Shown: positions 14,036 to 36,479 of the stretch, piece after piece
Position numbering within the stretch: position 1 is the first letter of the stretch
How the letters are laid out: the number at the start of each line of letters is the position of its first letter
DNA from: an uncultured Clostridia bacterium
GTDB taxonomy: Bacteria; Bacillota; Clostridia; Christensenellales; UBA1242
Reading direction: 5' to 3'
DNA: 64,000 nt
Assembly: GCA_944384375.1 (NCBI GenBank)
Contig: CALWTE010000017.1
Span: 1,344-65,343, forward strand
The notes under the pieces: model-generated
Database searches by the model: none
What the model was told of the DNA's origin: nothing
What the model saw: the letters and a program-made list of their open reading frames with translations, nothing else
Translations under genes and position numbers: made by a program

Positions 14036-14068
14036 ATAAGTAACATTTAAAAACTTAATAAAGTTAAT

Positions 14069-15508: not shown

Positions 15509-16054
15509 ATGGATTTATTTTCGGGATACTGTTACTCAGAGACGACAAAGAGCCGTTTAGCAAACTTTCTATATAATTATATAAACAAAAAGCCTGTTCT
15601 ATTATGTATCGGCTCAGATAAAATGCTCGCAGACTGCCTTGCACCCCTTACAGCCGAACTCCTTCGCAAAAAGGACTTTCCGTACTTTGTTTACGGTGGT
15701 CTTTCTGCGCCTATTACAACAAAAAACGCCGAATTTGCTTGCGACTTTATCCACACTATCCACAAAAACTCCCAAATTATAATAATTGATAGTATGGCGA
15801 CCACCAGACAATCTAGGCTCGGCACGATTATAATAAGCGATACTTACAAAGGTGCCATCAACAATTTAAATCTTGACGCTAATCTTTACATTTACGGCAT
15901 CACATCTTTACTTGATAGCACCAACAACCTTTTGACCAATGCTCGTCTTAATAATATTGAAAAAATTGCCACCACTATAACCAATGCCCTGTGCGATATC
16001 GCAAACTTCTACACCGAAATAAGCAAGTTAAAAGAAAAACAACTCCCTAATTAA
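15509..16054 (+). CDS. yyaC: YyaC-like putative sporulation protein (DUF1256)
   Basis: 'LLCIGSDKMLADCLAPL...VYGGLSAPI...IIIIDS' follows the YyaC pattern (CIGTD..GD.LGPL..VYGTL..P). B. subtilis yyaC is also origin-proximal. Confidence 0.55.
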   Translation: MDLFSGYCYSETTKSRLANFLYNYINKKPVLLCIGSDKMLADCLAPLTAELLRKKDFPYFVYGGLSAPITTKNAEFACDFIHTIHKNSQIIIIDSMATTRQSRLGTIIISDTYKGAINNLNLDANLYIYGITSLLDSTNNLLTNARLNNIEKIATTITNALCDIANFYTEISKLKEKQLPN

Positions 16055-17979: not shown

Positions 17980-18588
17980 AAAAAGCCTTTTGTTAAGCCA
18001 AAAACTCGTCGTAAGTAACACGATAAAATTTTTTAATTCCTTTCATCCAATCTATTAACTTATTATTTTTTACCCTGCTAATCATTTCCTTTGCTTTGCT
18101 AATGTGGCTTTCCTTTTTTTATTCGCATCACTTTTCTTTCCTTAAAATTTTCTGCTTCCAGATTCTTTTCTTTTTCTGCTGCTTTCCTGTAACCTACACT
18201 TTTCCTATTCCTTCCTTCTCCTTTTTCCCTTCTCGTACGTTTCTTGCTCCTTAACCTAACCATACTTAACCAGCCATCCATTTGAAATCAAATTTTAGAG
18301 AAAGAATATAAAATATATTTTTTTAATTTTATTTTTAAATAATAGATAAATAGTTATTGTTGTGGAAAAGTGGATATCTTGATAATCTTAGCATAAATAA
18401 TCCCTATTTAAAAAGCTTTATACATAAAAACAGAAAATTTTTTCGTGTGGATTTTTCGTGAATTTCGTATTATTTTTGTGTGTATATTTTGTGAAATTTA
18501 TCAAAATTCACGGGGATAACTAGATTATTTCAGCAATACTTGTAATTTTTTGTATAAGTCAATTTTTTGGCTTAACAAAAGGCTTTTT
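17980..18588. repeat. Perfect 25-bp inverted repeat pair (AAAAAGCCTTTTGTTAAGCCAAAAA) bracketing 559 bp
   Basis: 17980-18004 is the exact reverse complement of 18564-18588. Confidence 0.85.
18060..18290 (+). repeat. Polypyrimidine (T/C) tract of about 230 bp on the + strand
   Basis: Long runs such as cttttctttcc, ttcttttctttttctgctgctttcctg and ttcctattccttccttctcctttttcccttctcg, with very few purines. Confidence 0.8.
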
Positions 18589-19559
18589 TTAAAATTTTAT
18601 TTTTTAGCATCTCCTTTTAAACTTTTTAATTTCACTAAGTAAAGGTGGATTCTTTGAAATTTTACTTAGTTTATATTTTTATTATAAACTAAGTAAAAAA
18701 TTTTTTTAAGCAAATTTTGACATATTTTTTTTTTTAGACTATTAACCAAAATTGTTTAAATTAATCCACATTAAAAAACTTTATCTACAAGGGGTTTTGG
18801 ACACTTATCCACATTTTGCACATTGCGTGGAAAACTAACATTTTGTTGAAAACTACTCATTCCGTACTATTCCCCCAAAAAACCATATTAAAAATTTGCT
18901 TTCTAATAAGCATAACCTACCTCTTATAATAAATTATACAATCTTCTGTATCATAATAAAAACCCGTTATCTAAAGCAAAATATTCTTCAATATTAAATA
19001 TAATATCTAAAAACAGAACACTCAATAAGACTGCTTAATAGTAGTTATAAAAAGGCCATTTATTATCTTCCTATTCTGGCACCACTATAATATGCAATTA
19101 TCCTTCTTTGCCTTCTGAGATTTTTTAATAATTTTAAATGTTTATTAATAGAAATTTGCTTAGGATTTAAGAAAAAAATTTTGTATTTATAATAAAATTA
19201 CATAGAACTTTTATGTGACTTTAATTACTAATAAAAAATGAAATTATATAATTTACTTATAAATAATTAATTTAGATAGAAATTTTACAAAACCAGCATA
19301 TTACTAAATTAAAGTTAGCATGCTAGAAAAATAATCTTGCTCAAATAAACAACAAACTCTCACCCATAGAGCAAGTATGGTAAGTTATAAAAACAAAGTA
19401 GGTTAAACAAGTGAATAAAACAATTAAACCTAAAACATTCAATAAATATATAAGCAATAAAAACTAATATAGAAAAATTAAACCATCTATATTTTTATCA
19501 CTTTTTATATTAAAGAAACTATTGTTAAACAATCGCAAAAGCAAAATATTTATCAACTC

Positions 19560-19588
19560 TTGACAGAATAGGCAAAATTTGATATACT
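19560..19588 (+). promoter_or_regulatory. rpmH promoter TTGACA-N17-TATACT
   Basis: -35 at 19560-19565 and -10 at 19583-19588, 34 nt upstream of the rpmH ATG. Confidence 0.7.
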
Positions 19589-19621
19589 AATATACAATGT
19601 TATTTATACTAGGAGGAGAAA

Positions 19622-20783: not shown

Positions 20784-20818
20784 GTAAAAAGAAAACGGCT
20801 TTTGACCGTTTTCTTTTT
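20784..20818. terminator. Bidirectional rho-independent terminator at the yidC 3' end
   Basis: Stem gaaaacgg/ccgttttc (20791-20798 / 20806-20813) flanked by A5 and T5. Confidence 0.7.
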
Positions 20819-22025
20819 ATCTACTATAAGAAACTTTTTTAGTTTCCTTTTCTTTTTCATCTTTCCTTTTATCCAATTTATCAAATACTTTCATACATGT
20901 AAAGTTTATAATTACACCCATTAATGAGTTCGTAACAATGTATAGAGCAAATGCTGCAGAATAATAGAATGTAAAGATAATCATAATAACAGGCATTACA
21001 AATTTCATAATCTTCATTGCTGTGTTTGTATTTGCTTCTGGTTGTTGATTGTTTTGTTTTACACTATTATTTACAGGTTTAACTACAATTTGATTGTTTT
21101 TTGCTGTTGTGGATTTTTGATTCAACCATAATGAAAAAAATGTAATAGCACCCGATAGAACCACTAAAATAAAGTAACCATTCCAACTTGAATAAGTTTT
21201 TTGTATATCAGCCGTGATTGTATTATATTCCATAGCTATTTGATTTAGTCTTGCTTCATTTTGACCTACAGCATCATTTAAATTTGCAATATTATAAAAA
21301 TCATTATAATTTGGAACTCCCGAAACATATGTATCAGGGCGCCATACACTATCTATCCAAAGCCAATTATCTTTAATTTCTTCATATTTTTCAGCAACGT
21401 TTGCTTGCGCTATATCAATTTCTGTGGCTAAATCATTTTGCGCTACTAATTCAAAAGCTTTTTGACGAATTTGCGTTTCGCTTGGTTCTTGCACCCCTTC
21501 AGTTACTAGCGCCTCCTCAGCCTCGGTTAACCTATTATCTATTAGTCCTTGTATATATTGAGTAACTTCATCATAATTAGTCATTTGTAATTCTGTAATC
21601 AAAGTTTGTTGATATACTGTTTCTAATTGTGTATACTGATTATAAATTTTTTCTTGCGAAATCCCTACGAGTCCAGTAAACAATGTAATAAAGATAAAAG
21701 CAGTTAAGATTAAATTTATTAACATACTCAAACAAGACCCAACAACATTATATCCTTCTTTTTTATAAAGCTGCATTGTTTTTTGATTTAAAGCTTGCGG
21801 GTTGTTTTGATATTGTTTTTTTAGTTTTTGCAACTCTGGTTGCATTTTTTGTTGTTTTCGCATGCTGTCACGACTGACTTTTCTTTGCCAAATATCTAAA
21901 GGACTTAAAATTAATTTAAGCACGATAGTGAATACGATAATCATAAAACCGTAGTTTGGGATAAAGTCAAACAAGTTGATTATCGGTGACCACATGTCCA
22001 TAGTCCAGTTAGCTAAAAATGACAT
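20817..22025 (-). CDS. yidC: Membrane protein insertase YidC (long variant with an inserted loop)
   Basis: 'LKLILSPLDIWQRKVSRDSMRKQQKMQPELQKLKKQY', 'LYKKEGYN' and C-terminal TM segments with a basic tail. RBS aaaggagtttttATG. Confidence 0.85.
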   Translation of the reverse strand: MSFLANWTMDMWSPIINLFDFIPNYGFMIIVFTIVLKLILSPLDIWQRKVSRDSMRKQQKMQPELQKLKKQYQNNPQALNQKTMQLYKKEGYNVVGSCLSMLINLILTAFIFITLFTGLVGISQEKIYNQYTQLETVYQQTLITELQMTNYDEVTQYIQGLIDNRLTEAEEALVTEGVQEPSETQIRQKAFELVAQNDLATEIDIAQANVAEKYEEIKDNWLWIDSVWRPDTYVSGVPNYNDFYNIANLNDAVGQNEARLNQIAMEYNTITADIQKTYSSWNGYFILVVLSGAITFFSLWLNQKSTTAKNNQIVVKPVNNSVKQNNQQPEANTNTAMKIMKFVMPVIMIIFTFYYSAAFALYIVTNSLMGVIINFTCMKVFDKLDKRKDEKEKETKKVSYSR

Positions 22026-22368
22026 AAAAACTCCTTTAAATTAGTATTTTTTATTAAAAAATATTGAAAAACAGTAAAAATTTGATATTTTTTCAAATGA
22101 ATAACTATTCATTTAAAACAAAAATCTCGGCTCTCATCGCGTTTTAAATGAGGATATTTTTTTGATTTTTTATCAAAAAAAGTTAAAAATTCATTGTTTT
22201 TTAGTGATATTTTTAATTTTTTTTTTATAGAATTTCCTAATTTTTAAATTTCTTATAATCCTTAAATATTAATTAAATAGATAACAATTTTAAACCTTTT
22301 TAGTATTCAAGCTAATAACTAGATAAATTAATTTAGAATTATTATAAATAATATAAAATTTCAAAAGA

Positions 22369-23454
22369 TTATTTTAATTTGGAAACTAAATTATAAATTC
22401 TGTCTAAATCATCAGTATTGTAGTAATCAAAATAAATTCTACCTTTTTTATCGTTACCTAAAATTGTAATCTTTGTTCCAAAAACTTGTTGCATATCATC
22501 TCGCAATGATATTAATTCCATACTAAGTGGATTTGATTTTTTTGCTTGAGCAATTTCTGGTCTGATTAATTCTTGAACAGTTTTTTCTACTTCACGAGCG
22601 GTCATTTTACCATCACTTGCTTTTTTTGCAATTAAAATCTGTTGTTCTCGCGGCAATGTAATAATTGCTCTTGCTATACCAGGTTGCAACTTTCCTTTTT
22701 CTACTAAAGTAAGTACTTCTGGTTCTAGTGATAATAATCTCAAACTATTAGCAACAACAGGTCTACTTTTCCCTATTTTTTGTGCAACTTCGTCTTGAGT
22801 GAAGCCATAATTATCAATTAATTGTTTAATGGCTACAGCAGTTTCTATTGGGTTCAAGTCCTCGCGCTGCAGGTTTTCTATTAGCGCTATTTCTCTGCGT
22901 TGTTGTTCATTATAATCTCTAATTATAACAGGCACTGTCTTTAATCCTGCAAGTCTAGCGGCTCTATAGCGCCGTTCACCTGCAATAATAATATAAATAT
23001 CATCTTTAGGTACTGCAATAATTGGTTGAATAATGCCATGTTCTTTTATAGATTGCGCTAATTCTTTTAACGACTCTTGATTGAAATTCTTACGAGGTTG
23101 GTCAGGGTTTGGCTGCAATCTTGTAATAGATATCTGTCTTGCCGTTGCTCCTTGATACATTTCCTCGCCTGCTGTTTTTAATTTTTCTTCAAGTTTTGTT
23201 TTTTCTTTCACAAACTCTATATTTTCTGTAGGCTCTTTTGGTTGTACTTTCTTTTGATATTTTTCCAAAAGATTATCAGCATTATTTAAAATTTCTAAAT
23301 TTGTAGTATTTTTTGCTGTTTTTTCAGTGTTTTGTTTTGTTTTTTCTATTTTTACGATATCATCAGCTTCTTTTTTATTTTCTAGAATATCCTTGTTGTC
23401 GTCTTCATATAAAGCAAACAAAGAACTTAGACCACGCCCTAAACCTTTACTCAT
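22369..23454 (-). CDS. parB: Chromosome partitioning protein ParB/Spo0J
   Basis: 'QPRKNF', 'GIIQPIIAV', 'IIAGERRYRAARLAGL' and an HTH 'FTQDEVAQKIGKSRPVVANSLRLL'. Overlaps the parA stop. Confidence 0.95.
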   Translation of the reverse strand: MSKGLGRGLSSLFALYEDDNKDILENKKEADDIVKIEKTKQNTEKTAKNTTNLEILNNADNLLEKYQKKVQPKEPTENIEFVKEKTKLEEKLKTAGEEMYQGATARQISITRLQPNPDQPRKNFNQESLKELAQSIKEHGIIQPIIAVPKDDIYIIIAGERRYRAARLAGLKTVPVIIRDYNEQQRREIALIENLQREDLNPIETAVAIKQLIDNYGFTQDEVAQKIGKSRPVVANSLRLLSLEPEVLTLVEKGKLQPGIARAIITLPREQQILIAKKASDGKMTAREVEKTVQELIRPEIAQAKKSNPLSMELISLRDDMQQVFGTKITILGNDKKGRIYFDYYNTDDLDRIYNLVSKLK

Positions 23455-24268
23455 TATTCAAATCCCCCTTAAATAACATTCTTTTTTCCATAAGCACCCC
23501 ACTATCTTTGTTGCGTCGTAAAAACTCACGCGCTAACTCATGATACGCAATTCCACCCGTACTTCTATTATCATACAAATAAATAGGCAGTCCGTGGCTT
23601 GGGGCTTCAGCTAGCCTAATATTTCTAGGAATAACTGTTTGATATACTTTTTTCCCAAAACCCTCTTTAATCTCATCTATTACTTGATTTGATAAATTAC
23701 TTCTACTATCCTTCATTGTTAAAATTATGCCTTCAATCTCTATTTTAGGATTATAATACTGTTTTACAAGTCTTACTGTATTAAGTAGTTGCATTAACCC
23801 CTCTAAAGCATAAAATTCACATTGAATCGGTATAATTACACTATCAGAAGCTGTTAAGGCATTTACTGTAATCAAACCTAAAGAAGGCGGACAATCTATA
23901 AATATGTAATCGTACTTATTTTTTACTTGTCCTAATTGTTCTAGTAATACTTTTTCTCTGCCTTCTTTTTGAACCAGACTTACCTCTGCTCCTGCCAAAT
24001 CAACATTACTAGGTACTAAATCTAGGTTTTTTATATTTGTTTCTTTTATTAGGTCAGTAAGCTTATATTCGCCTGTTATAACATCATAAAAAGTCAACAT
24101 ATCCTTTGTTTTTTCAAAGCCTATACCAGTTGTAGCATTTCCTTGAGGGTCCATATCAATCAGCAAAACTTTTTTCCCGTAAGCTGCTAAATAAGTAGAC
24201 AAATTGACACAAGTAGTAGTTTTACCAACTCCCCCCTTTTGATTTGTAAAAGCAATAATTTTGGTCAT
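23447..24268 (-). CDS. parA: Chromosome partitioning ATPase ParA/Soj
   Basis: 'IIAFTNQKGGVGKTTT' deviant Walker A and 'IIDCPPSLG'. Start placed at ATG 24268 behind gaggtggg. Confidence 0.95.
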   Translation of the reverse strand: MTKIIAFTNQKGGVGKTTTCVNLSTYLAAYGKKVLLIDMDPQGNATTGIGFEKTKDMLTFYDVITGEYKLTDLIKETNIKNLDLVPSNVDLAGAEVSLVQKEGREKVLLEQLGQVKNKYDYIFIDCPPSLGLITVNALTASDSVIIPIQCEFYALEGLMQLLNTVRLVKQYYNPKIEIEGIILTMKDSRSNLSNQVIDEIKEGFGKKVYQTVIPRNIRLAEAPSHGLPIYLYDNRSTGGIAYHELAREFLRRNKDSGVLMEKRMLFKGDLNNE

Positions 24269-24341
24269 ATTTCCCACCTCTAATCTTGATATTAAAATTA
24301 TATCACAACTCGTATTTTAATGCAACAAAATAAAAGTAAAA

Positions 24342-24357
24342 AGTTTCACGTGAAACG
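24342..24357. promoter_or_regulatory. parS-like site (14/16 match; the inner 14 bp are palindromic)
   Basis: aGTTTCACGTGAAACg compared with consensus TGTTNCACGTGAAACA. Confidence 0.6.
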
Positions 24358-24520
24358 TTTATTTTATTAGATTTTGTATAAAGTAATCAAAAAAAATCAA
24401 AAACTTTCTAATATATTGCAAAATTGATAATTTTTCACACAAAAAAATTAATTTTTATAGTATTATGCATTGTTTTTTAGTGAAATTAGTTTTCTGTCGT
24501 CTTAATAATTGAAAATTTAT

Positions 24521-24536
24521 TGTTTCACGTGAAACA
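24521..24536. promoter_or_regulatory. parS site, perfect palindrome
   Basis: TGTTTCACGTGAAACA; the palindrome extends to 20 bp (24519-24538). Confidence 0.85.
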
Positions 24537-25028
24537 ATGTTTTCTGTATAACCACCAAATACTCTTAATTACTGTTTTTATTAAAAAATGTTAATATTGA
24601 ATGGTTGATAATTTTGTATTAAAATTTGCTATCACAAAATCGTATTGCTTTTTAAATTTTTATTTATTTATATCACAACTATTATTTTATAAAAAAAATA
24701 AAATCATTATATATATATTACTCTTTGTTTCTATGTGGTTTTAACTTTTATGAAATTTGCATGGTAATGTGTTTTGTAAATAAATTAAATTTTTCCAATA
24801 CTATCTAATTAAAAATATACAAATCAATTTATAATATTTATATTTATATTTAATATTATTTAGTGTTTAGTATGATTAAATGGTATTTGATAACTCTTAC
24901 AGCTTTATTTGTTTTTTAATGTCCAATGTTTACATACTTTTTATTATAATGTAGTAAAAATGCTAAATATTGATGCTTTTTTAATTATTTCTATTAAAAA
25001 ATTATAAAATAATGCCAGATATTTCAAA

Positions 25029-25044
25029 TGTTTCACGTGGAACA
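25029..25044. promoter_or_regulatory. parS site
   Basis: TGTTTCACGTGGAACA is the reverse complement of the B. subtilis-type TGTTCCACGTGAAACA. Confidence 0.85.
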
Positions 25045-25334
25045 CTTAAAAAGGTTTGGTTTTATTTGTTTAATAATAATACAGAGTGTTATATATTAAT
25101 AATAAAATAAATTAATAAATTAAGTTTTTTATGGAAATTGTTACAATAATGCAATCATTAACAAATCAATGTCTTTTTGTGCTTTGTGGTTTACTTGTAA
25201 AATGTAAATTGTTTTAAAGATATAAAAATCTAAACATTAAACACACACTTAACAAAGCAGTTGTTTGTATTCTAATATACTTATTATAGCAAATGTGGTT
25301 TAAAAATTAAAAATTTAAATATAATTAAAAGTAT

Positions 25335-25350
25335 TGTTTCACGTGAAACA
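25335..25350. promoter_or_regulatory. parS site, perfect palindrome
   Basis: TGTTTCACGTGAAACA. Confidence 0.85.
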
Positions 25351-25436
25351 AAAAATATTGTATTATTATTTGTTTTTTATTATTGATGCTTTTTAAATAT
25401 ATAAACAAATATAAATATAATTATCTACGAATATAA

Positions 25437-25452
25437 TGTTTCACGTGAAACA
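25437..25452. promoter_or_regulatory. parS site, perfect palindrome
   Basis: TGTTTCACGTGAAACA. Confidence 0.85.
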
Positions 25453-25837
25453 ATATTAATTTGCTTTTTAAGTGTTTGTTGGGTTTTTGTTATAAGTGTG
25501 AAGTCTATTTTTTAACAAAATACGTTTTATTAATAGAAAATTGATATTTACATTAATGCTTTTCTGTTTATGCGATATAAGATAGATAAAAAATATTATA
25601 AATGTTTGTTGGCAATAATTTTAAAATATAAATGTGTATTACATTAGCGTTTTATTAATATCTGCTATACTGTTACAATACCAGTTTGGTTTGCTTGTTT
25701 TTTGTTTGTTCGTATTTATGTTTATGATTTAGAGTGTTATTTTAATGCATAGTACCAGTTTTTTTAAAAATAATCATTTTTTCTTTAGTTTTTCATATAA
25801 AATTAAAGTTTTACATTAAAACCATTTTTATAAGAAT

Positions 25838-25870
25838 AAAAAAAGAACGCGTTTTGTACGTTCTTTTAGT
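25838..25870 (-). terminator. Rho-independent terminator of rsmG
   Basis: Stem aagaacg/cgttctt with an A7 run on the + strand, which is a T-run on the transcribed minus strand. Confidence 0.65.
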
Positions 25871-25880
25871 AAAAATAAGT

Positions 25881-26603
25881 TTATAATGGTGATGTTAAGA
25901 TTTTGTTTTTTAATCTAGGGTAATTTGTGGGTGTTTCCTTTGTTTTGCCTATGATTATAATTTTTCGTTCTAATAATTCATTGTTTTGTGTGTTTTTTAG
26001 TGAAAAAGTTTGGATTTCTTTGAATTTTCCACCTAGTTTACTAATTGCCTGGTTTGCTGCTAATATTTCTTCTTCTGGGCTTATGGCCTTAAATGCAATC
26101 ATTTCACCTTTTAGTTTTACAAAAGGTAAACAATATTCTGTTAGAATATTTAGTTTTGCGACAGCTCTTGCGATAACATAATCAAAAGTTTCTCTACTTA
26201 TTCCGTTTTGTGGTAGTTCTTGGGCTCGTGTATGTATTGTCTTTGTATTGTTTAATTCTAGTTCTTTAATGACTATATTTAAAAAATTTATTCGTTTTAA
26301 TAAGCTATCAACTAAGATTATTTGCAAATCAGGTCTAAATATTGCAATTGGGATACCAGGAAAACCTGCTCCTGTACCGATATCACATAAGGTGGAGTTT
26401 TCTTTGTAGTAACTAATGTTAACTAAAGAATCGGCAAAATGTTTTAGAGAAACATCATAAGGGTCTGTGATTGCTGTTAGGTTTATGTTTTTATTAAATT
26501 CTATCAATAAATTATAATATTTTAGTAATTGATCTATTTGACTTTCTGTGGCTGATATGTTGTTTGTTTGTAGTGTGTTTTTAATTATAGATTTAACATC
26601 CAT
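25881..26603 (-). CDS. rsmG: 16S rRNA (guanine527-N7)-methyltransferase RsmG/GidB
   Basis: 'LCDIGTGAGFPGIPIAI' SAM-binding motif, and the position immediately downstream of mnmG. Confidence 0.9.
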   Translation of the reverse strand: MDVKSIIKNTLQTNNISATESQIDQLLKYYNLLIEFNKNINLTAITDPYDVSLKHFADSLVNISYYKENSTLCDIGTGAGFPGIPIAIFRPDLQIILVDSLLKRINFLNIVIKELELNNTKTIHTRAQELPQNGISRETFDYVIARAVAKLNILTEYCLPFVKLKGEMIAFKAISPEEEILAANQAISKLGGKFKEIQTFSLKNTQNNELLERKIIIIGKTKETPTNYPRLKNKILTSPL

Positions 26604-26608
26604 TTATT

Positions 26609-28477
26609 CTATTGCTCCTTGTTTTTCTTTAAATAAATAGTCAAAATATTAATATCTGCTGGTGACACGCCGCTTATTCTACTTGCTTGGGCTATTGTTA
26701 AAGGTTTGGTGCTAGATAGTTTTTGACGTGCTTCTATTCTTAAACCTTTTAAAGCGCTGTAATCAAAGTCTTGCGGTATGGTTAAGTTTTCGTTCTTTTG
26801 AAATTCGGCTATTTGCTCTTTTTGTATATTTATATATCCCTCATATTTTGCAATAATATTTAATTGTTCCAGAACTTCTGTGGAAAAGTCGTCAAAGTGA
26901 TGAAATTCTTTATTAAACTTATAGATGTCAATATTATTGCGTTTGAGTAGTGATTTTATGGAAATTCCGCTTTTCACTTCATTTTCGTTATTTTCTTTTA
27001 AAAATTCTTGTAATTTATTGTTTGGAGATAAAAATTTGTTTAAAATTTCGTTTCCACGTGCAATTTCTTTTTCTTTTTTCAAAACTTTTAGATAATTACT
27101 CTTGCTAACTAGTCCTACCTTATATCCTATTTTTGTGAGTCTTAAATCGGCATTGTCTTGCCTAAGAAGAAGCCTATACTCTGCTCGTGATGTCATCATT
27201 CTATATGGCTCGTTAGTTCCTTTTGTAACTAAGTCGTCTACTAGCACGCCGATATAAGCCTCGTTTCGCTTTAAAACGATTTGTTCTTTATTTTGCACAA
27301 ACAATCCAGCGTTTATTCCTGCGAGTATCCCCTGTCCTGCTGCTTCTTCATATCCGCTGGTGCCATTAACTTGCCCTGCAAAGAATAATCCTTTGATTTT
27401 TTTATATTCCAAAGTTGGTAATAAATCACGCGAATCTATACAATCATATTCTATTGCGTAAGCATAGCGCATTAAATGTGCTTGTTCTAACCCTACAATG
27501 CTGTGGATAAAATCAATTTGTGCGTGATATGGCAAGCTACTTGAAAGCCCTTGAACGTAAATTTCGTTAGTGCTAAGCGCTTCAGGTTCTAGGAAAAATT
27601 GATGTCTAGATTTATCTGCAAAACGGACAATTTTATCTTCAATAGATGGACAGTATCGTGGCCCTATACCCTTTATGACTCCCTGATAAAGTGGGCTGAA
27701 TTTTAGGTTATCACGTATAATTTGATGTGTTCGTTCATTTGTATAACCTATATAGCAATTCACTTTATTTTGTGGGGCGCTACGTGTGTTTTTGCTAAAA
27801 GGTGGTAAATTCTCTTGACCTATTTGAGGCTCTAGCGCATCAAAATTTACTGTGCGCCTATCAATTCTCATAGGTGTACCCGTTTTAAATCTTAAAATTT
27901 TCAATCCTAACCCTGCTAAACTGCGTGTCAATTTTGTCGCATTGGTAAAGCCGTTTGGCCCGCTATTTCTTATGTAATTGCCAGTCAAAGTCCTACTATT
28001 GAGATATACACCCGTACAAATTACTACTGCTTTTGCGGAGAATTTTTCCCCCATTGCTGTTTTGATACCGAGGAGTTTTCCCTTGCGAGTCAATATTTGA
28101 GCAACTTCTGCTTGCAATATGGTTAAATTCTCTTGATTTTCCAAAGTTGATTTCATAACTTCGTGATAACGAACTTTATCAACTTGCACACGTAAGGAGT
28201 GAACGGCTGGGCCTTTTGCTTCGTTAAGCATATGGCGATGAAGGGTCGTCTTATCTGCAACTTCCCCCATAACCCCGCCCAAAGCGTCAATCTCAAATAC
28301 CAAATGCCCTTTTGCCGTTCCCCCGATACTAGGATTACAAGGTAAAAAGCCGATACTATCTAAATTTAATGTCGTAATGAGTGTTTTTAATCCCATTTTC
28401 GCACAAGCCATTGCCGCTTCGCATCCTGCATGGCCTGCTCCTACGACGATTACGTCAAAATTATTTTCGTTGTTCAT
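26609..28477 (-). CDS. mnmG: tRNA uridine 5-carboxymethylaminomethyl modification enzyme MnmG/GidA
   Basis: 'FDVIVVGAGHAGCEAA', 'GPRYCPSIEDK' and 'GQVNGTSGYEEAAGQG'. Start moved to ATG 28477 (MNNENNFDV) behind aagggga. Confidence 0.95.
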   Translation of the reverse strand: MNNENNFDVIVVGAGHAGCEAAMACAKMGLKTLITTLNLDSIGFLPCNPSIGGTAKGHLVFEIDALGGVMGEVADKTTLHRHMLNEAKGPAVHSLRVQVDKVRYHEVMKSTLENQENLTILQAEVAQILTRKGKLLGIKTAMGEKFSAKAVVICTGVYLNSRTLTGNYIRNSGPNGFTNATKLTRSLAGLGLKILRFKTGTPMRIDRRTVNFDALEPQIGQENLPPFSKNTRSAPQNKVNCYIGYTNERTHQIIRDNLKFSPLYQGVIKGIGPRYCPSIEDKIVRFADKSRHQFFLEPEALSTNEIYVQGLSSSLPYHAQIDFIHSIVGLEQAHLMRYAYAIEYDCIDSRDLLPTLEYKKIKGLFFAGQVNGTSGYEEAAGQGILAGINAGLFVQNKEQIVLKRNEAYIGVLVDDLVTKGTNEPYRMMTSRAEYRLLLRQDNADLRLTKIGYKVGLVSKSNYLKVLKKEKEIARGNEILNKFLSPNNKLQEFLKENNENEVKSGISIKSLLKRNNIDIYKFNKEFHHFDDFSTEVLEQLNIIAKYEGYINIQKEQIAEFQKNENLTIPQDFDYSALKGLRIEARQKLSSTKPLTIAQASRISGVSPADINILTIYLKKNKEQ

Positions 28478-28924
28478 TTGTGTTCCCCTTATGTAAATAC
28501 TTATTATTATATCAAAAAATTTATCTTTTGTATAGATGTAATAAGTAAAATTTGGAATTTTTAAACAAAACTGATGTTTTGTGATTTTTATTTTTATAAA
28601 AAATTTCAATTTCTGTAATCAATGATAATTTTCATAAGATATTTATAGAAAAACTAATGTTTTAAATTAACTATATAAAAAAGATAAAAACTGTTAGTTT
28701 TGCCATTTTGTTTTACAATAAAAATAAATGCTTTTTAAAAAGTAATTCTTTCTTCTGCTAATTTTAAGTATCTTAAAAATACAACGGTAATATTGAAAAA
28801 GTTTTAACATATTATTATAGATTTGTTAAATATGAATTAATATCAAAATTTCACAAACAAAAATATTGTTCTAAACAAATGTACGATAAAAAAATTTTTA
28901 CTTTAACAAAAGGACTTTTATAAG

Positions 28925-29040
28925 TTATCCACATTTTTAGAACATATATTTTGCACTATTTTTTGTACTTTTTAAGATTTCTGTGGATAAAATGTGTACA
29001 AAAAGGTAAGTTATCCACATTAGTTTTCCACTTATCCACA
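28925..29040. promoter_or_regulatory. Dense DnaA-box cluster: four perfect TTATCCACA boxes in 116 bp
   Basis: Perfect boxes at 28925-28933(+), 28982-28990(-), 29011-29019(+) and 29032-29040(+), plus TTTTCCACT at 29024. Lies between divergent mnmG and the surface-protein gene. Confidence 0.75.
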
Positions 29041-29185
29041 TTCAAGAGATGCAAAATCTTTTAGAAAATTTATAAAATAATAGTCGTTTTTATTTGTTTT
29101 TATAGGGGGAAATATGCTAAAATTATTTTATATAAAATAAAATATTTTTCTTCATTTGTTACATAATAAAAATAGGAGTTAAAAA

Positions 29186-32100
29186 ATGGCTTTATCAAGG
29201 CAAAATTTAAGGAAGATAGGAATTGCAATACTTATTGCTATTTTTGCTTGTACTGTTTTATGTGCTGGTTTAGTAATAGGTAGTTCAAATAAAACACAAA
29301 GTAAATTCGTAAGTGCTGCCGAAGGGGTGTGGACTGATTATGCCACAGCGCCTAGTAATGCTGCGGCGGGTGATAGTAGGGATAATCCTATTAGAATCGG
29401 TACGGCTGAAGAATTAGCGTGGCTTGCTCAAGAGGTAAACGCTGGGAACGATTTTTCGGGGCGGTATATTGAGTTAAATGGTACTTTAGATTTAAGTGCT
29501 CATAACTGGGTGCCTATAGGAACAGCGGATAATCCTTTTAGGGGAAATATTACCTTGCGTGGTAGTAATGTACCTGTAATTAGGAATCTAACAATTGATA
29601 CAAATGTTTTGTTAGAAAGTATACCTAATCTAAACTATATAGGTTTGTTTGGTTATGTAGATAAGGGTAGCGCGCAGTATGGTAGTGGTTATTTAGAATT
29701 AGTAACTTTGGAAAATATAAATATCAACATTGCTGGTGCTTTGCCTAATTCAAATATTTATGTTGGCGGTCTTGTTGGATATTTTAATGGTTCGCCTCGT
29801 ATATCGGGAGGAACGACTGGCAATACGGGTGCTGATTTACAAGCGATAAGCGGTACAATTTACCTTGATTTAGCCGAATATGGCACAAACTCTTGTTTTG
29901 TAGGTGGTCTAGTGGGAGAATTGGCTAGCGGTGGTGGATTAGGCTGGACTGCAAATAATTCTTATGTTGCGGTAAACTTTGATACTGTAAATTGCGTTGG
30001 TAAAAATCTTTATGTCGGTGGAATTGTAGGGCAGAATAATGGGACAATTACGGGTACAAATAACCTTAGTATCAACAATACCGAAGGGAATTTGTCCTTT
30101 AACGTAAACGCAGGCTATTTCGGTGGCGTGGTAGGTAACAACACTAGCACAGGGGTTATTCGTAATATTAGGACGACGGCTAGTATTGTAAGTGACACTT
30201 TGGAAAATGGAGTTTTGGCAATAGGTGGAATTGCTGGACAAAATACAAATGGAAATATTATAAACTGTACGAATGTGGGGCAAATAACTGCTAGTTCGGG
30301 CTCTGTCGGTGGTATAGCAGGGATAAATATAAATGCTAGTGCCGTAATTGAAAATTCCACTAATTCAGGGCAAATTGTAATTTATTACGGTTTGGGAATA
30401 AATGCTGGTGGAATTGCAGGGCAGAATGATTCTGGACAGGTTAGGAGTTCGTCTAATACTGGTAATATTTTAGGTGTAGGTGCTACAGTATCTGATAGTG
30501 TAAAAATGAGTAGGCGAGTAGGTGGTATAGTCGGTATAAATACTAGCAATGCAGGTACAGGAATTTATGATTGTTATAATACGGCAAACATAGGTGCAAG
30601 CCTAACAGTAGGTTATGTCGGTGGTATCGCTGGCTGGAATCAAGGCAGAATTTCAAATGCAACAAGAGGGGGTACTACATACGGCTTTAATTATAATACA
30701 GGAGATGTTTGTGGTGCCTCTTATGTGGGCGGAATTGCTGGAGGAAATGATAGCATTATAGCATATTCATATAACACAGGTGATGTCTGGGGTACAGATG
30801 CTAACAATTCATATGTTGGAGGTATAGCAGGTTCTTTAAGTATAATAAGTGGTTCTGGGGAGCTGGAAAAAAGTGTAGAATTTTGCTTTAATATGGGGAA
30901 TATTGGCAATAGGAATACAAGAACTGCTGGTGGAATTACAGGTGAAGTTGCTAGTGTTAATACATTAGAAAATGTGATTAATTATGGTAATGTAAGCGCA
31001 GTAATTTCTGCTGGAGGATTAATAGGTAGCTCAACAGCAGGACGTTCAAGTATCACTTTGCGATATGTTATGTCAGTAGGTAAAGTGGTCGATGCAGGCG
31101 CTGATACGAGTATTGCTAGTCTAGGTGGATTAATAGGTGATATGCACGCAAATGCCATTGCTGGTGCAGAGAATATAACTAACGCAATTTACAGCAAGAG
31201 TGTGGCAAACTATGATGAAAATCTGTCTAGTCGCGATAATGGAATGGGCGTAACCGCAAACAATGTAGGCGGTTGGAATAGTAACTTAAGACGTGCGACA
31301 AGTTATAATCTAACACTGCCTGGTGCAGAATCTACAACTAATGCAACGATAATTGACTTTGTAAATAGTGGAAATTGGTATTTTGCTCCATCTATTGATA
31401 ACGAGCATAAGCATTTTTATCCTATTTTGAGTTGTTTTCAAGACGGTGTAGTCTTTGCTACAGAAACTACTGGTAGCGGGCAAGTAGTTTATCCAGATGT
31501 CATCATTTATGCGGTGAATTTTATAAACCACCGTCCTGTTCAATGGAATGAGGGGAATAGTCAAATTGATTATACTGATGAATCAATTAATGCGTTTACT
31601 GATGCTGCTCCCGAGTACACAATTGACGGTACACAATATATAAATGCAGGGCAGAGATTAAGCGAGCCTGCCGAAAACACCTATACACATGCTGATGGGT
31701 ATACTGAGGTTTGGCGCATTGGGGAAGAAAACACTGCTAGCGAATTTAGTTTTGATACAGCAATTTATCAAGATACTACGGTTTATTTGACGTGGGAAGG
31801 CGAGCAGTATAATGTTATATTCTATCTATATAATCAAGAAACTGGCAGTTTTGATTTAGTAACAGATTTTGTAACTTATCCAGAATATTGGGATGGTTTG
31901 ACTATACAATACACTTTGGACCCAACGGCTACTATGCGAATTGATGGTGTATCGGGTACGGGTACCACTTTTGTAGGTTGGTGGACAGATAGAGAAAGTG
32001 CGTTAAACGGCATTTTGACTGAAGATTATAGTCAAGCAACGTTAGATTTTAGCCGAAACGTGCAATATACAGACGGACTAGTGATTTATGGTAGTATTCA

Positions 32101-33706
32101 ATTTGTTACAGTTACAGTAACCATAGATGCAGGCTCTATCGGTAGTACACCTATGACCTTTGCTGATGGTAGTAGGACAAAGCAAGTACAAATAACTTAC
32201 AATTCAACATATACCCTTGATGTTAATTTTAGTAACCATGACGGTTGGTCTTTTATGGGGTACTTTTCTACGCCTAATGAAGGTGCAGTACAATATACTG
32301 ATTTAAGTGGTAATTCACTTAGTCCTTCTGGATTTGCAGAAGATGGCATAATCTTGTATGCGCAATGGATTGCTACATCGCAAAACGTAATTTTTGCAAG
32401 TAAAGGTTTAGACGGTACTGTTGTAACACTTGTTACAATTACTGTTGATTATAATACTGCTATTCCTGTTGACCAAATTCCTGACGATACGGAAATTAAT
32501 TATGCCATGATAGATAGTACCAAAGATGCTAATGGTTATAGAATACAAGATTTTTATACTACATTAGATTGTGTCGCTGGTACTGAATTTGATTTTGATA
32601 CTATTATTTTAGGCGAAACACATATTTATGTAGGCTGGGAAGTAGTTTCTTTTGAATTGACATTGAATGCTAATGGCGGATTATTTAGTAATGGTGTAGG
32701 TACGTACAGATTTAATGTACCATACGGGCAAGACGTTATTCAAGCAATTATAGGTGAATCTAGCAATTTTGGCACTCCTACTTATGCTGGGTTCTCTCCT
32801 TTGAGCGAAAATGGTGTATTATTATGGAGTGTGAATTCTTATAGTGCGGGCGCAAATTTTGATGTAAGGGATATTGTTTCTATTGATAATAATAATTACT
32901 TAATGCCTGCTAGCAGTTTGCAACTTTATATTGTTTGGGAAACGGAGAATTTCACCATTTATTTACGTAGTAACGGTGGAGCATTTACTGACGGCAGTTC
33001 GTTAAAAGCCATTAGTCTCGCTTTTGGTCAAAATGTTTTATCCGCTCTAAATCAATATACTGATATAATTCCTACTATGGCGGGGTATGGGTTTAGATTT
33101 TGGAGTCAAGATAATGACGAAGGCGCTATGGAAATTGACGAAAATATGACAATGCCTAGCGAAGATTTAACATTGTACGCGATTTGGGGCGAACAGGTTA
33201 CTATTACGTTTTACGTGCTAGGTATTAGCGAAGAAGATAATATGCTATATACATTCCCTGTGTTTAGGGGCGAAATTGTACAAGACGTGGAAGGTTTAAC
33301 CGAAATTGAAGACGCTGTAAACCGAATGGTAAACGGTAGTGGATTCTTATTTGACCACTGGGAGCAAATAATTAATCCTGATACCAGTGGAAACTTTGAT
33401 ACGACTGGTGTAGCATTTAATTTTGATACTGCGATTATTAATGAAGATATTATGTTAATGGCTACCCTTTCTTTAGACCCAAACTTCAATCCAGCACCAG
33501 CAGATACTACAAATTATTTAATTATAGCAATTGTAGTAATTTTAGTGGCTGTTGTGCTAATGTTCTTGCTAATTTGGACAAATATGCGTAAACACACTAT
33601 GACGCTAGAAGACAGCAAGATTAAGAATAAGGATATAAAGAAACAATTAGACGAAATCAAAGAGTTGGAGCGTAGACGTAAAGAATTAGACAATCCATAC
33701 GAGTAA
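29186..33706 (+). CDS. Giant cell-surface protein: signal/anchor, GLUG-type repeats, Listeria-Bacteroides (Flg_new)-type repeats, C-terminal TM anchor
   Basis: 1506 aa. N-terminal hydrophobic 'IGIAILIAIFACTVLCAGL'. Many 'GG(I/L)(A/V)G' units. Recurring units such as 'ELTLNANGGLF', 'FTIYLRSNGGAF' and 'TLYA.W'. C-terminal TM 'YLIIAIVVILVAVVLMFLLIW' plus a charged tail. Confidence 0.75.
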   Translation: MALSRQNLRKIGIAILIAIFACTVLCAGLVIGSSNKTQSKFVSAAEGVWTDYATAPSNAAAGDSRDNPIRIGTAEELAWLAQEVNAGNDFSGRYIELNGTLDLSAHNWVPIGTADNPFRGNITLRGSNVPVIRNLTIDTNVLLESIPNLNYIGLFGYVDKGSAQYGSGYLELVTLENININIAGALPNSNIYVGGLVGYFNGSPRISGGTTGNTGADLQAISGTIYLDLAEYGTNSCFVGGLVGELASGGGLGWTANNSYVAVNFDTVNCVGKNLYVGGIVGQNNGTITGTNNLSINNTEGNLSFNVNAGYFGGVVGNNTSTGVIRNIRTTASIVSDTLENGVLAIGGIAGQNTNGNIINCTNVGQITASSGSVGGIAGININASAVIENSTNSGQIVIYYGLGINAGGIAGQNDSGQVRSSSNTGNILGVGATVSDSVKMSRRVGGIVGINTSNAGTGIYDCYNTANIGASLTVGYVGGIAGWNQGRISNATRGGTTYGFNYNTGDVCGASYVGGIAGGNDSIIAYSYNTGDVWGTDANNSYVGGIAGSLSIISGSGELEKSVEFCFNMGNIGNRNTRTAGGITGEVASVNTLENVINYGNVSAVISAGGLIGSSTAGRSSITLRYVMSVGKVVDAGADTSIASLGGLIGDMHANAIAGAENITNAIYSKSVANYDENLSSRDNGMGVTANNVGGWNSNLRRATSYNLTLPGAESTTNATIIDFVNSGNWYFAPSIDNEHKHFYPILSCFQDGVVFATETTGSGQVVYPDVIIYAVNFINHRPVQWNEGNSQIDYTDESINAFTDAAPEYTIDGTQYINAGQRLSEPAENTYTHADGYTEVWRIGEENTASEFSFDTAIYQDTTVYLTWEGEQYNVIFYLYNQETGSFDLVTDFVTYPEYWDGLTIQYTLDPTATMRIDGVSGTGTTFVGWWTDRESALNGILTEDYSQATLDFSRNVQYTDGLVIYGSIQFVTVTVTIDAGSIGSTPMTFADGSRTKQVQITYNSTYTLDVNFSNHDGWSFMGYFSTPNEGAVQYTDLSGNSLSPSGFAEDGIILYAQWIATSQNVIFASKGLDGTVVTLVTITVDYNTAIPVDQIPDDTEINYAMIDSTKDANGYRIQDFYTTLDCVAGTEFDFDTIILGETHIYVGWEVVSFELTLNANGGLFSNGVGTYRFNVPYGQDVIQAIIGESSNFGTPTYAGFSPLSENGVLLWSVNSYSAGANFDVRDIVSIDNNNYLMPASSLQLYIVWETENFTIYLRSNGGAFTDGSSLKAISLAFGQNVLSALNQYTDIIPTMAGYGFRFWSQDNDEGAMEIDENMTMPSEDLTLYAIWGEQVTITFYVLGISEEDNMLYTFPVFRGEIVQDVEGLTEIEDAVNRMVNGSGFLFDHWEQIINPDTSGNFDTTGVAFNFDTAIINEDIMLMATLSLDPNFNPAPADTTNYLIIAIVVILVAVVLMFLLIWTNMRKHTMTLEDSKIKNKDIKKQLDEIKELERRRKELDNPYE

Positions 33707-34589: not shown

Positions 34590-35909
34590 ATGGAAGATAC
34601 TATTTGCGCAGTGGCTACGCCCGTAGGAAATGGCGGAGTCGCTATCATTCGTGTTAGTGGCGAACGAGCCTTAGAGATTGCGGGCAAAGTTTTTGCTAAA
34701 TTGCAGGATAAAGTGGAGCCTAGGCGTGCCATTTTTGGTAAGTTAAACTTTGATAATGTGGTAGATGACGCTTTGGCAATTTACTTTAAAGCCCCTAAAA
34801 GTTTCACAGGTGAAGATGTGGTGGAATTGCAAATTCACGGCGGGTATTATTTGGCGCAAAGTCTAGTAAACAAGTTAATTAGTCTAGGGGCAAGGCTTGC
34901 CGAACGTGGCGAATTTAGCAAACGTGCCGTACTAAACGGACAAATGGATATGAGCCAGGCGGAAGGTATTATTGATATAATTAATGCAAATTCGCAGGCA
35001 CAATTGCGTGCAGGTTCGGGGCTACTTGCGGGCGCTATGAAAAACTTTGTGGGTGAGTTGCAAGACGAAATTACTCAAATAATGTGTGAAGTAAACGTCG
35101 CACTAGATTACCCAGAACATGATATTGAATACATCACAGCACAAAAAATTGCCGAAGTGGTTAAACAACTTTTGGAAAAAATTGACGGCAAGTTATCCAC
35201 CGTGCAGACAGGTTTGCAGGTAAAAAACGGTGTAAATGTCGTGCTTGCAGGCAATCCAAACGTGGGCAAAAGTAGCCTAATGAATAGCCTTTTAGGGTAC
35301 GACAGAGCGATTGTTACTGATATTGCTGGCACTACACGTGATACAATCAGTGGCAGTTATGAGTTTAACGGAATGTTGTTTAATCTTATTGATACGGCGG
35401 GCTTACGTGACACTCAAGATGTGGTGGAAAATGCTGGAATAGAGCGCGCCAAAGCTGAAATCCAGCACGCAGACATAATTTTGAGTATTGTAGATGCCGA
35501 AAAAAATGAAGAAAGCGAAGATTTAAAAAAATTAGAGAAAAATACAGCAAAAATCTTAAAAATTGTCAATAAAATTGATAAAAAAGAGCCAAAAACCCCT
35601 TGCGATTTGGCAGTTAGCGCAAAAACGGGCGAAAATATAGACAAATTAAAGCAACTAATTTTTAATAAAACGGTAAACGATAAAATTTATGCAGACGGCG
35701 ATTTTTTAACGAACACCCGCCATATACAAGACTTGAAATCAGCAAGGGACGCTTTGCAAGAAACTTTTGATAATTGCCAGACCGCCACACTAGATTGTCT
35801 TGCTGTTACCTTGATGCAAGCATGGAATAAACTAGGCGAAATCACGGGCGAATGTGCCAACGAAAAAATTATAAACGAAATTTTTGCAAAATTCTGCTTG
35901 GGCAAGTGA
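34590..35909 (+). CDS. mnmE: tRNA modification GTPase MnmE/TrmE
   Basis: 'DTICAVATPVGNGGVAIIRVSG', G1 motif 'GNPNVGKSSL', 'DTAGLR' and a C-terminal 'FCLGK' followed by a TGA stop. Confidence 0.95.
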   Translation: MEDTICAVATPVGNGGVAIIRVSGERALEIAGKVFAKLQDKVEPRRAIFGKLNFDNVVDDALAIYFKAPKSFTGEDVVELQIHGGYYLAQSLVNKLISLGARLAERGEFSKRAVLNGQMDMSQAEGIIDIINANSQAQLRAGSGLLAGAMKNFVGELQDEITQIMCEVNVALDYPEHDIEYITAQKIAEVVKQLLEKIDGKLSTVQTGLQVKNGVNVVLAGNPNVGKSSLMNSLLGYDRAIVTDIAGTTRDTISGSYEFNGMLFNLIDTAGLRDTQDVVENAGIERAKAEIQHADIILSIVDAEKNEESEDLKKLEKNTAKILKIVNKIDKKEPKTPCDLAVSAKTGENIDKLKQLIFNKTVNDKIYADGDFLTNTRHIQDLKSARDALQETFDNCQTATLDCLAVTLMQAWNKLGEITGECANEKIINEIFAKFCLGK

Positions 35910-36198
35910 TTTTTAAGTGATTTTTATATAAAATTCTTTTATATATCATTTATATAAGATAATAACATTATTAAAATTATAGTAATTAAAAAATAAATAA
36001 AAATAATTTTTAATTAATAAAGATTAAAACACCAAAAATTTCACTATAAATTATTTTTGTTATTATATATTGATAAATAATTAATAAATTAAATAAAAAT
36101 CTAATAATTTTATTAAAAAATGCAATACAATATATTTAAGGAAATTAAAGCAAAATTAATATTTAAATAATATTAAAACAAAAGATTTTATATAAACT

Positions 36199-36226
36199 AA
36201 AAAGCGGTGGATAACTCCGCTTTTTT
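36199..36226. terminator. Hairpin aaaGCGG-tggataact-CCGCttt flanked by A- and T-runs; the loop carries a DnaA-box-like GGTGGATAA
   Basis: Short GC stem with A/T extensions. Sits at the A-rich to T-rich switch point of the intergenic region. Confidence 0.4.
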
Positions 36227-36274
36227 AATTTTTAAAATTTGCTAAAATTATTTAAAAATAATAAAAATTATATA

Positions 36275-36322
36275 TTTTTCGCCATTTTTTGTCGTTTTTT
36301 ACATATTTTTTATTATTTTTTT
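36275..36322 (+). repeat. Phased T-tract array (copy X), homologous to 37113-37168 and reverse-complementary to 39524-39580
   Basis: T-tract starts at 36275, 36285, 36295, 36306 and 36316. The 18-mer GTTTTTTACATATTTTTT (36294-36311) recurs identically at 37134-37151. Confidence 0.8.
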
Positions 36323-36479
36323 AGGTACTATGCATTATTTGTGATATATTTTTTGGTTATTTTTAGTTTATTTTTCAAATATTAATAAAATTTTAATATT
36401 TGTATTTTTTTGCTTATAATCATTTATAAGTTTGTATAAAATATTTGTATTAAATAAAAGTAATTAATATTTTTAATCT

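Follow-up and report, generated by a model that had tools for sequence, protein, structure and literature searches.

Introduction

The Escherichia coli origin oriC lies between gidA (mnmG) and mioC and carries sites for IHF and Fis as well as clusters of GATC, and E. coli datA, a locus of DnaA titration or of DnaA-ATP hydrolysis, depends on IHF and on a specific arrangement of DnaA boxes. The present work deals with a cluster of DnaA boxes that, as in oriC, is found directly upstream of mnmG in a divergent spacer, in a 64,000-nucleotide stretch of contig CALWTE010000017.1 from an uncultured Clostridia bacterium; this whole stretch, which belongs to a metagenome scaffold of 85.7 kb, is referred to as the window.

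In Bacillus subtilis, six DnaA-box clusters (DBCs) are present outside oriC, and deletion of all six leads to early initiation (Ishikawa 2007, PMC2533591; Okumura 2012, PMC3245932). One of these, DBC[thdF-jag], is located upstream of the thdF(mnmE)-gidA(mnmG)-gidB-noc operon, is bound by DnaA with A = 0.48 and exerts weak repression on the operon (PMC2533591; PMC3245932); it is not conserved even among Bacillus species. The value A derives from the criterion for stable DnaA complexes established in B. subtilis by chromatin affinity precipitation on chip (ChAP-chip), which demands four successive boxes with an Ishikawa A (summed affinities divided by the mean gap) above 0.3. In Pseudomonas aeruginosa and most Pseudomonadaceae, oriCI is situated beside rpmH-dnaA and a second, origin-like region, oriCII, at gidA (Wawrzyniak 2026, PMC13438810). 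OriCII, with five boxes upstream of gidA, overlaps the gidA promoter and 5' coding region; it replicates on plasmids, is dispensable for the chromosome and regulates gidAB-parAB (PMC13438810). Bipartite origins (B. subtilis, Clostridioides difficile, Helicobacter pylori), arranged as oriC1-dnaA-oriC2, consist of two cooperating DnaA-box groups, one of which contains the DNA unwinding element (DUE).

The window resembles the Pseudomonas chromosome in that two DnaA-box regions, an rpmH-side and a gidA/mnmG-side one, share the origin neighbourhood with gidAB and parAB. From the sequence comparisons reported below, it is somewhat more likely than not that the mnmG-side region is an origin-proximal auxiliary DnaA-box cluster, that is, a predicted high-affinity landing pad for DnaA and not a site of duplex opening.

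Results

Predicted high-affinity DnaA boxes upstream of mnmG

The cluster is contained in a 708-bp spacer (28478–29185, 19% GC) between mnmG and a plus-strand gene for a 1506-amino-acid protein starting at 29186, hereafter the surface-protein gene. For comparison, a genome scan with MnmG provided five genomes of the same lineage (L001–L004 and L008; uncultured Clostridia and 'Christensenella sp.' metagenome-assembled genomes), the six genomes including the window sharing 75–86% identity in MnmG protein and 68–76% at the DNA level. A metagenome scan with ParB for further relatives returned two short contigs only, which were of no use. The four perfect boxes next to mnmG described in the initial annotation were all confirmed in position and strand, and are listed here with the weaker boxes and the adjoining spacer DNA:

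28925–28933, plus strand: DnaA box 1, perfect (TTATCCACA), inside the repeated 15-mer TAAGTTATCCACATT; counterparts at 8371 in L002 and 9213 in L004 at the same spacing
28982–28990, minus strand: DnaA box 2, perfect, in opposite orientation; counterparts at 8314 in L002 and 9157 in L004
28993–29001, minus strand: weak DnaA box TTGTACACA, one mismatch to TTATNCACA
29011–29019, plus strand: DnaA box 3, perfect, in the second copy of the 15-mer; counterpart at 8285 in L002
29024–29032, plus strand: degenerate box TTTTCCACT, abutting box 4
29032–29040, plus strand: DnaA box 4, perfect; counterpart at 9108 in L004
28478–28924: AT-rich spacer between the boxes and mnmG (447 bp, 17% GC), kept in relatives neither in sequence nor in length (456–1698 bp)

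Across the 64-kb window, 10 perfect TTATCCACA boxes were counted, a number attained in none of 100 shuffles, by which 0.60 were expected; four perfect boxes in 116 bp are therefore far beyond chance. The start-to-start distances between the three perfect boxes on the plus strand (86, 21 and 107 bp) are near whole helical turns, which puts these boxes on one helical face. The 15-mer is an exact repeat within the cluster, and the pair at 29024/29032 is a tandem of the same kind as that of the rpmH-upstream module described below. A further perfect box at 27502 was set aside; it belongs to the mnmG coding sequence, where the corresponding codons of relatives contain a version with mismatches.

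Only two places in the window pass A > 0.3, namely 18762–18822 (A = 0.75) and the mnmG-side cluster, with values of 0.63 (28925–29019) and 1.50 (28982–29040), the latter being the highest predicted stable-binding score of the window. At the same locus, A amounts to 0.63–2.62 in L002 and 0.48 in L004, and is below the threshold in L001 and L008. The earlier description of the cluster as the densest of the window holds for perfect boxes, but with a relaxed consensus the region 18249–18848 scores about the same. In location the cluster conforms to a DBC, being intergenic, 10.5 kb from the module at 18305–18377 and 3–4.6 kb from the skew switch (see below).

The divergent intergenic setting, with the minus-strand block yidC-parB-parA-rsmG-mnmG to the left, was borne out by Pfam scans. 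A TTG at 28609 was rejected as the start of mnmG in favour of the ATG at 28477 (minus strand), from which the boxes are 448–563 bp away. The very AT-rich DNA that had been pointed out beside the cluster is real, but ordinary for a genome whose intergenic regions run at 12–26% GC.

Conservation of the cluster in relatives

Synteny is kept in the lineage, the order being surface-protein gene, spacer, mnmG, rsmG, spacer, parA, parB and yidC, then yidD, rnpA and rpmH on the opposite strand and a long noncoding stretch. The contig of L003 stops short of the cluster site, leaving five spacers for comparison. In L002 and L004, whose MnmG is 76–78% identical to that of the window, the boxes are retained: L002 has boxes at 8285 (minus), 8314 (plus) and 8371 (minus), spaced by 29 and 57 bp as in the window, together with extra tandem boxes, and L004 keeps the box order at spacings of 49 and 56 bp. 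The tandem GTGGAAAAC/GTGGATAAC arrangement is kept in both. Outside the boxes the spacers do not align, the box flanks being unalignable among the window, L002 and L004, and the sole 11-mer common to all five available spacers is the box GTGGATAACTT. Because boxes and spacing persist where noncoding DNA is unalignable and mnmG is only 68–76% identical at the DNA level, the comparison indicates that the boxes are under selection.

The distance from the boxes to the surface-protein gene ranges from 146 to ~1350 bp among relatives, with 146–490 bp in the window, L002 and L004; in L008, a different gene neighbours the spacer. Both the mnmG-side and the rpmH-side cluster are present in the window, L001, L002 and L004. 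In the more distant relatives L005–L007, which have jag-mnmE-mnmG, no boxes were found at that site.

Comparison with an unwinding module

According to the basal unwinding rule, three or more DnaA-trios must occur within 16 nt of a box with at most two mismatches, on the 3' side of that box (PMC8287927), a trio being 3'-NAN-5', i.e., NTN on the box strand, with the consensus CTA (PMC8287927); the AT-rich DUE lies beyond the trios. The polarity of box, trio and DUE was checked against the C. difficile oriC2 description and against R1 and the 13-mers of E. coli oriC, where the 13-mer DUE is on the 3' side of the R1 box.

With four perfect and two weak boxes in 116 bp, the cluster has the box number of an origin (at least three DnaA boxes at a mean spacing below 100 bp). 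The trio rule failed at the cluster, the longest run being two T-centred triplets for the boxes at 28925 (plus), 28982 (minus) and 29032 (plus), and the counterpart boxes in L002 and L004 have at most three triplets, at non-homologous places. A strict trio scan of the whole window gave a single, irrelevant match. Aligning the window with L002 and L004 brought up no AT-rich unwinding element conserved beside the cluster boxes. The AT-rich DNA at 28478–28924 adjoins the 5' side of the leftmost box, which is the wrong side for the order box-trio-DUE, and the least stable 40-mers beside the cluster rank about 700–940 of 63,960, compared with rank 46 for the tract on the rpmH side. GATC is absent from 28478–29185, and the strand composition of neutral sites does not switch at the cluster.

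The rpmH-upstream region served as the comparison locus:

18305–18377, minus strand: rpmH-upstream unwinding-type module, outside the cluster
18762–18834: upstream box group of the rpmH-side region (TAATCCACA, TTATCTACA, TTATCCACA, TTTTGCACA, TTTTCCACG), Ishikawa A = 0.75

Read on the minus strand, the module is composed of the tandem boxes ATATCCAC and TTTTCCACA (18361–18377), a 7-nt spacer, the triplets CTA TTT ATC (18345–18353) and a 41-nt pure A/T tract (18305–18345), followed by a purine-rich tract. The arrangement of box, trio and A/T tract is kept in all six genomes, each of which passes the trio rule with 3–6 triplets. The A/T tract is identical at 28/28 positions in L002, L003 and L004, a conservation exceeding that of mnmG itself, and represents the 8th least stable 40-mer of the window. 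The geometry fits that of E. coli R1-DUE and of C. difficile oriC2. The surrounding gene-free region (16055–19621) occupies the place of dnaA-dnaN in a canonical Firmicute, contains scattered perfect boxes at 16298 (minus), 17836 (plus) and 18805 (plus), and has a top strand with strong C > G skew, amounting to −0.33 to −0.54 as far as 18.3 kb. We regard the box-trio-A/T element at 18305–18377, ~10.5 kb from the cluster, as most likely the DnaA-dependent unwinding module of this lineage, and the rpmH-upstream region has the appearance of an oriC1 and an oriC2 that became joined once dnaA had left.

The purine-rich (GA) tract directly after the A/T tract extends over ~180 nt (18100–18300, minus strand), and a purine-rich tract occurs in relatives, too; a called open reading frame of 60 amino acids at 18099–18281, rich in Lys, Arg and Glu and without a ribosome-binding site, is probably spurious. 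In L002, L003 and L004, a second pair, TTTTCCAC with T(T/A)TCCACA, is followed by AT-rich DNA 0.85–2.7 kb past the main rpmH-side module. Another tandem pair, TTATCCACA with CTATCCACA, was observed at 15747–15764, within the DUF1256 (yyaC-like) coding sequence.

Strand composition and the parA-rsmG spacer

All-site curves gave a GC-skew minimum at 24723 and a cumulative GC-skew valley at 24.7–29 kb. Since all-site curves track the gene strand, and the composition of third codon positions (GC3) is swayed by Met, Trp and amino-acid content, gene-level GC3 and all-site skew fits were discarded in favour of 4-fold degenerate and noncoding sites. At 4-fold sites of the top strand, C exceeds G through parA, and G exceeds C from rsmG onward; on the coding strand, C > G in mnmG and rsmG and G ≥ C in yidC, parB and parA were found in all six genomes. 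mnmG and rsmG (25881–28477 and orthologues) combine this C > G with A > T at coding-strand 4-fold sites in 6/6 genomes, opposite to nearly all other genes of the window, in which T exceeds A. Head-on replication is one possible cause of these preferences, and codon usage peculiar to the two genes is another. Two things weaken the 4-fold skew of mnmG and rsmG as a clean indicator, namely their atypical A > T preference and a slight C > G bias of the same genes in L005 and L007. The skew argument is thus carried by noncoding DNA, because the codon usage of mnmG and rsmG is atypical. G:C counts, pooled over the six genomes and given for the top strand of the window, were as follows:

parA-rsmG spacer, rsmG-side third: G:C 319:192, skew +0.25
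parA-rsmG spacer, middle third: G:C 266:251, skew +0.03
parA-rsmG spacer, parA-side third: G:C 222:361, skew −0.24
Box spacer, mnmG side: G:C 343:273, skew +0.11 (p = 0.005)
Box spacer, surface-gene side: G:C 317:190, skew +0.25
Between rpmH module and rpmH: G:C 345:423, skew −0.10
First 500 bp past the A/T tract of the rpmH module: G:C 206:456, skew −0.38
500–1500 bp past the A/T tract of the rpmH module: G:C 436:746, skew −0.26

The outer thirds of the parA-rsmG spacer differ from each other (chi-square, p = 1.5e-15), with the same signs in every genome. The neutral-site cumulative minimum falls in this spacer in 5/6 genomes, at the rpmH module in L002 and at the mnmG cluster in none of the six. 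Skew, which the initial annotation had proposed for discriminating between the cluster and the locus at 16–19 kb, therefore decided for neither, the neutral-site switch being located in the parA-rsmG spacer, 3–4.6 kb left of the cluster and ~6–7 kb from the rpmH-side module. 'Right-arm' skew already prevails on the mnmG side of the box spacer and in mnmG and rsmG. This argues against forks starting at the mnmG cluster, since replication and transcription would push the mnmG-side skew the opposite way, and it is no clean pointer to the rpmH module either.

The spacer at the switch contains the parS sites of the window:

24342–25452: five parS sites within the gene-free parA-rsmG spacer (24278–25880)

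Of these sites (TGTTTCACGTGAAACA), three are perfect, and none was found elsewhere in the window. In relatives, parS-like palindromes (TGTTTCAYRTGAAACA) occupy the same spacer, which is between 0.44 and 2.2 kb long. A separate, conserved TGTGATATAAT promoter serves parA behind the parS spacer, and the spacer includes three of the window's 10 least stable 40-mers. It contains no DnaA boxes and no DnaA-box enrichment, and a search for iterons or other conserved elements revealed none in it apart from parS and the parA −10 element. TGTGGTTT was considered as a conserved element of the spacer and dismissed, its three copies in the window not being kept in relatives.

Candidate promoters flanking the cluster

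Inspection of the spacer for promoters yielded the following candidates:

28506–28534, minus strand: best candidate mnmG promoter, TATACA-17-TGnTATAAT, a consensus match only, ~390 bp from the nearest box
29094–29123, plus strand: putative promoter of the surface-protein gene, TTGTTT-18-TGcTAAAAT, whose TGCTAAAAT element aligns in L004

The boxes lie ~90–119 bp upstream of the implied start site of the surface-protein gene and overlap neither candidate promoter. Control of this gene by DnaA, which had been raised with the cluster, is possible, but is poorly supported by this separation and by the drift of the box-to-gene distance in relatives.

Gene map of the window

Pfam scans of the window gave the following map:

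4032–6590, minus strand: polA
13241–15360, plus strand: short run of small genes with phage-like domains (Cro/C1 helix-turn-helix, Bro-N)
15509–16054, plus strand: DUF1256/yyaC-like gene
16055–19621: 3.5 kb without credible gene, 23% GC
From 19622, plus strand: rpmH, rnpA, yidD
20817–28477, minus strand: yidC, parB, parA, rsmG, mnmG
28478–29185: 708-bp spacer holding the box cluster
29186–33706, plus strand: surface-protein gene, 1506-amino-acid protein with Glug and Listeria-Bacteroides repeats
34590–35909, plus strand: mnmE
45124–45813, minus strand: cvpA
46141–47535, minus strand: dnaA, alone
53820–56711, minus strand: gyrA
57699–59663, minus strand: gyrB

In these scans, dnaN was not present in the window, the gene downstream of dnaA being cvpA, and the 400-bp spacer upstream of dnaA has no DnaA box with at most one mismatch to TTATCCACA; the usual autoregulatory or origin context of dnaA is thus missing. 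The perfect box at 47427 was dismissed as a site of dnaA autoregulation, as it is inside the dnaA coding sequence (codons Leu-Trp-Ile-Asn). A tblastn search for dnaA remnants in noncoding regions found none (best E-value 7.8), and Rfam and tRNA scans returned nothing.

The reported divergence of gene orientation at the cluster holds locally, but is weak evidence, since gyrB and gyrA (53820–59663), dnaA and cvpA farther right are all on the minus strand. Lying to the right of every candidate origin, these genes are head-on to replication; gene-strand bias is weak in the gyrA-gyrB region (~60–70% co-oriented). The phage-like gene run at 13241–15360, beside the origin region, may be a mobile-element remnant. 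Several of the window's least stable segments, of 40 as well as of 100 bp, are located in the intergenic stretch 35910–36479, which has only 12% GC.

Discussion

The initial annotation had left it open whether the cluster is a second origin-like module or serves DnaA titration or regulation. The latter is favoured here, and the former is disfavoured by the lack of a box-trio-DUE module and of a skew switch at the cluster and by the conservation of the rpmH-side module. Among described systems, DBC[thdF-jag] of B. subtilis and oriCII of Pseudomonas come closest. With DBC[thdF-jag], the cluster shares an intergenic position near the origin of a Firmicute beside mnmE/mnmG genes, at least four close predicted high-affinity boxes, A values above 0.3 (0.63–1.50 versus 0.48) and no unwinding element. 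From this likeness, DnaA titration and weak local repression would be the expected role. The arrangement differs in that mnmE follows the surface-protein gene and the boxes are between divergent genes, not before an mnmE-mnmG operon. In Pseudomonas, the rpmH-side region is the one that works as the origin, and the region at gidA serves a different purpose. Unlike oriCII, the boxes of the window are 448–563 bp from mnmG and ~390 bp from its candidate promoter, and parAB are set apart behind a parS spacer of 0.4–2.2 kb with their own promoter; the resemblance is almost certainly of independent origin, as the phylum differs. Judged by these analogies, the cluster would work like a B. subtilis DBC and like oriCII, with homology to neither demonstrable; L005–L007 with jag-mnmE-mnmG lack boxes there, and the overlap with the promoter that marks oriCII is not seen.

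The analogy to the gidA/mnmG-adjacent oriC of E. coli, drawn in the initial annotation, stands as a positional one; a DUE in R1 geometry, a trio array and GATC are all missing from the locus, which is not an oriC of the E. coli type. To datA, in which some five boxes lie close together away from the unwinding site and capture many DnaA molecules shortly after initiation, the likeness is functional only, no IHF site or homologous sequence having been found, nor any search for one made. From bipartite origins the locus differs in scale: partners there are 1.4 kb apart across dnaA, whereas the cluster and the rpmH-side module are separated by 10.5 kb with nine genes and the parS array between them.

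As an auxiliary cluster, the locus could act as follows. DnaA, in its ATP and ADP forms, would fill the perfect boxes and oligomerise over the weak ones. Because it is only a few kb from the replication start, the cluster would be duplicated right after initiation, within seconds, and the doubled strong sites would lower free DnaA and damp re-initiation, as in the B. subtilis clusters and E. coli datA. Modest tuning of the divergent promoters is possible, more plausibly of the surface-protein gene than of mnmG. Overall, titration or positioning of DnaA is the probable task of the cluster, and any influence on the flanking promoters would be weak at most.

That the cluster is instead the chromosomal origin, or the unwinding half of a bipartite one, at which bound DnaA would open the AT-rich spacer alongside in the manner of E. 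coli oriC next to gidA, is unlikely. The most perfect boxes of the window beside 447 bp of 17% GC DNA, their retention in relatives, the purine-disparity minimum, the cumulative GC-skew valley and diverging gene blocks with better co-orientation than at the rpmH locus would all suit such an origin. It would, however, lack a trio array and a conserved A/T element beside the boxes; its AT-rich flank, which adjoins the leftmost box on the wrong (5') side, is anything between 456 and 1698 bp long and, at rank ~940, not unusually unstable; and the mnmG-side noncoding DNA, the 4-fold sites of mnmG and rsmG and the rsmG-side spacer third are right-arm in every genome. The skew switch itself would fit a dispersed origin, in which the mnmG-side and rpmH-side clusters flank a start in the box-free and very AT-rich parS spacer and act on it by DnaA-DnaA looping or through ParA/ParB, a possibility to which we assign a distinctly low probability. 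Of its flanking platforms, the mnmG-side one would be 4 kb away on the right and the rpmH-side one 6.5 kb away on the left, and the origin would be physically merged with the centromere, which we hold equally doubtful. The sole origin-type sign change of neutral skew is in the middle of the parA-rsmG spacer (+0.25, +0.03, −0.24; p = 1.5e-15; 5/6 genomes), where three of the 10 least stable 40-mers are also found, and distal DnaA boxes are able to act via loops in B. subtilis. Yet no known origin is of such design, and loops have been tested to 462 bp at most; the spacer itself is neither enriched in DnaA boxes nor equipped with iterons, parS and the parA promoter are its only conserved elements, and skew is an indirect record that the A > T codon usage of mnmG and rsmG may inflate.

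It is likewise improbable that the cluster is a transcription-factor site only, through which DnaA activates or represses the surface-protein gene and/or mnmG with the timing of initiation unaffected. Its place within a divergent promoter region, the short distance to the surface-protein gene in the window, L002 and L004, and the precedents of thdF-gidA-gidB-noc in B. subtilis and gidAB-parAB in P. aeruginosa, which DnaA regulates from such boxes, are in line with it. Against it, the boxes overlap no candidate core promoter (~90–119 bp on one side, ~390 bp from the mnmG −35 element on the other), the distance to both genes drifts among relatives, with a different neighbour in L008, and any four strong boxes near the origin titrate DnaA regardless. 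Finally, the boxes could be without present function, the decaying remains of an origin or dnaA promoter of an ancestor that was stranded when rearrangements dispersed dnaA, rpmH and mnmE. The region is indeed heavily rearranged, with dnaA orphaned without dnaN or upstream boxes and mnmE apart from mnmG, and the cluster is weaker in L001 and L008. Perfect boxes at identical spacing amid unalignable noncoding DNA, with mnmG at 68–76% DNA identity, nevertheless require selection, and we give decay hardly any credence.

Several observations weigh against an auxiliary role. DnaA binding by the cluster, its effect on initiation and its role are inferred from sequence. The all-site purine-disparity minimum (28774) is inside the cluster spacer, gene co-orientation is ~70% for an origin at the cluster versus ~59% at 18.3 kb, and a standard origin predictor would probably pick the cluster spacer. 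The skew switch is off the rpmH-upstream module as well. Absence of trios at the cluster is not decisive, because ~15% of predicted origins have no recognisable box-trio module. In L001 the cluster consists of one perfect box with three imperfect ones, and in L008 of three imperfect boxes; it is weaker there and thus less constrained than a core element, or dispensable.

For origin annotation in metagenome-assembled genomes, this lineage is a useful test case because at least two strong predicted DnaA-binding regions occur in it together with an orphan dnaA, and the neighbourhood of the origin is rearranged. Led by the perfect boxes, mnmG and the purine minimum, automated origin finders would probably name the cluster spacer as oriC, and the comparative evidence suggests that they would be mistaken. 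That the skew switch coincides with neither cluster is a concrete anomaly, open to testing, in the relation of replication start sites to DnaA boxes and parS. Should the cluster prove to be a DnaA sink, the concept of origin-proximal DnaA-box clusters developed in B. subtilis would extend to distant uncultured gut Clostridia.

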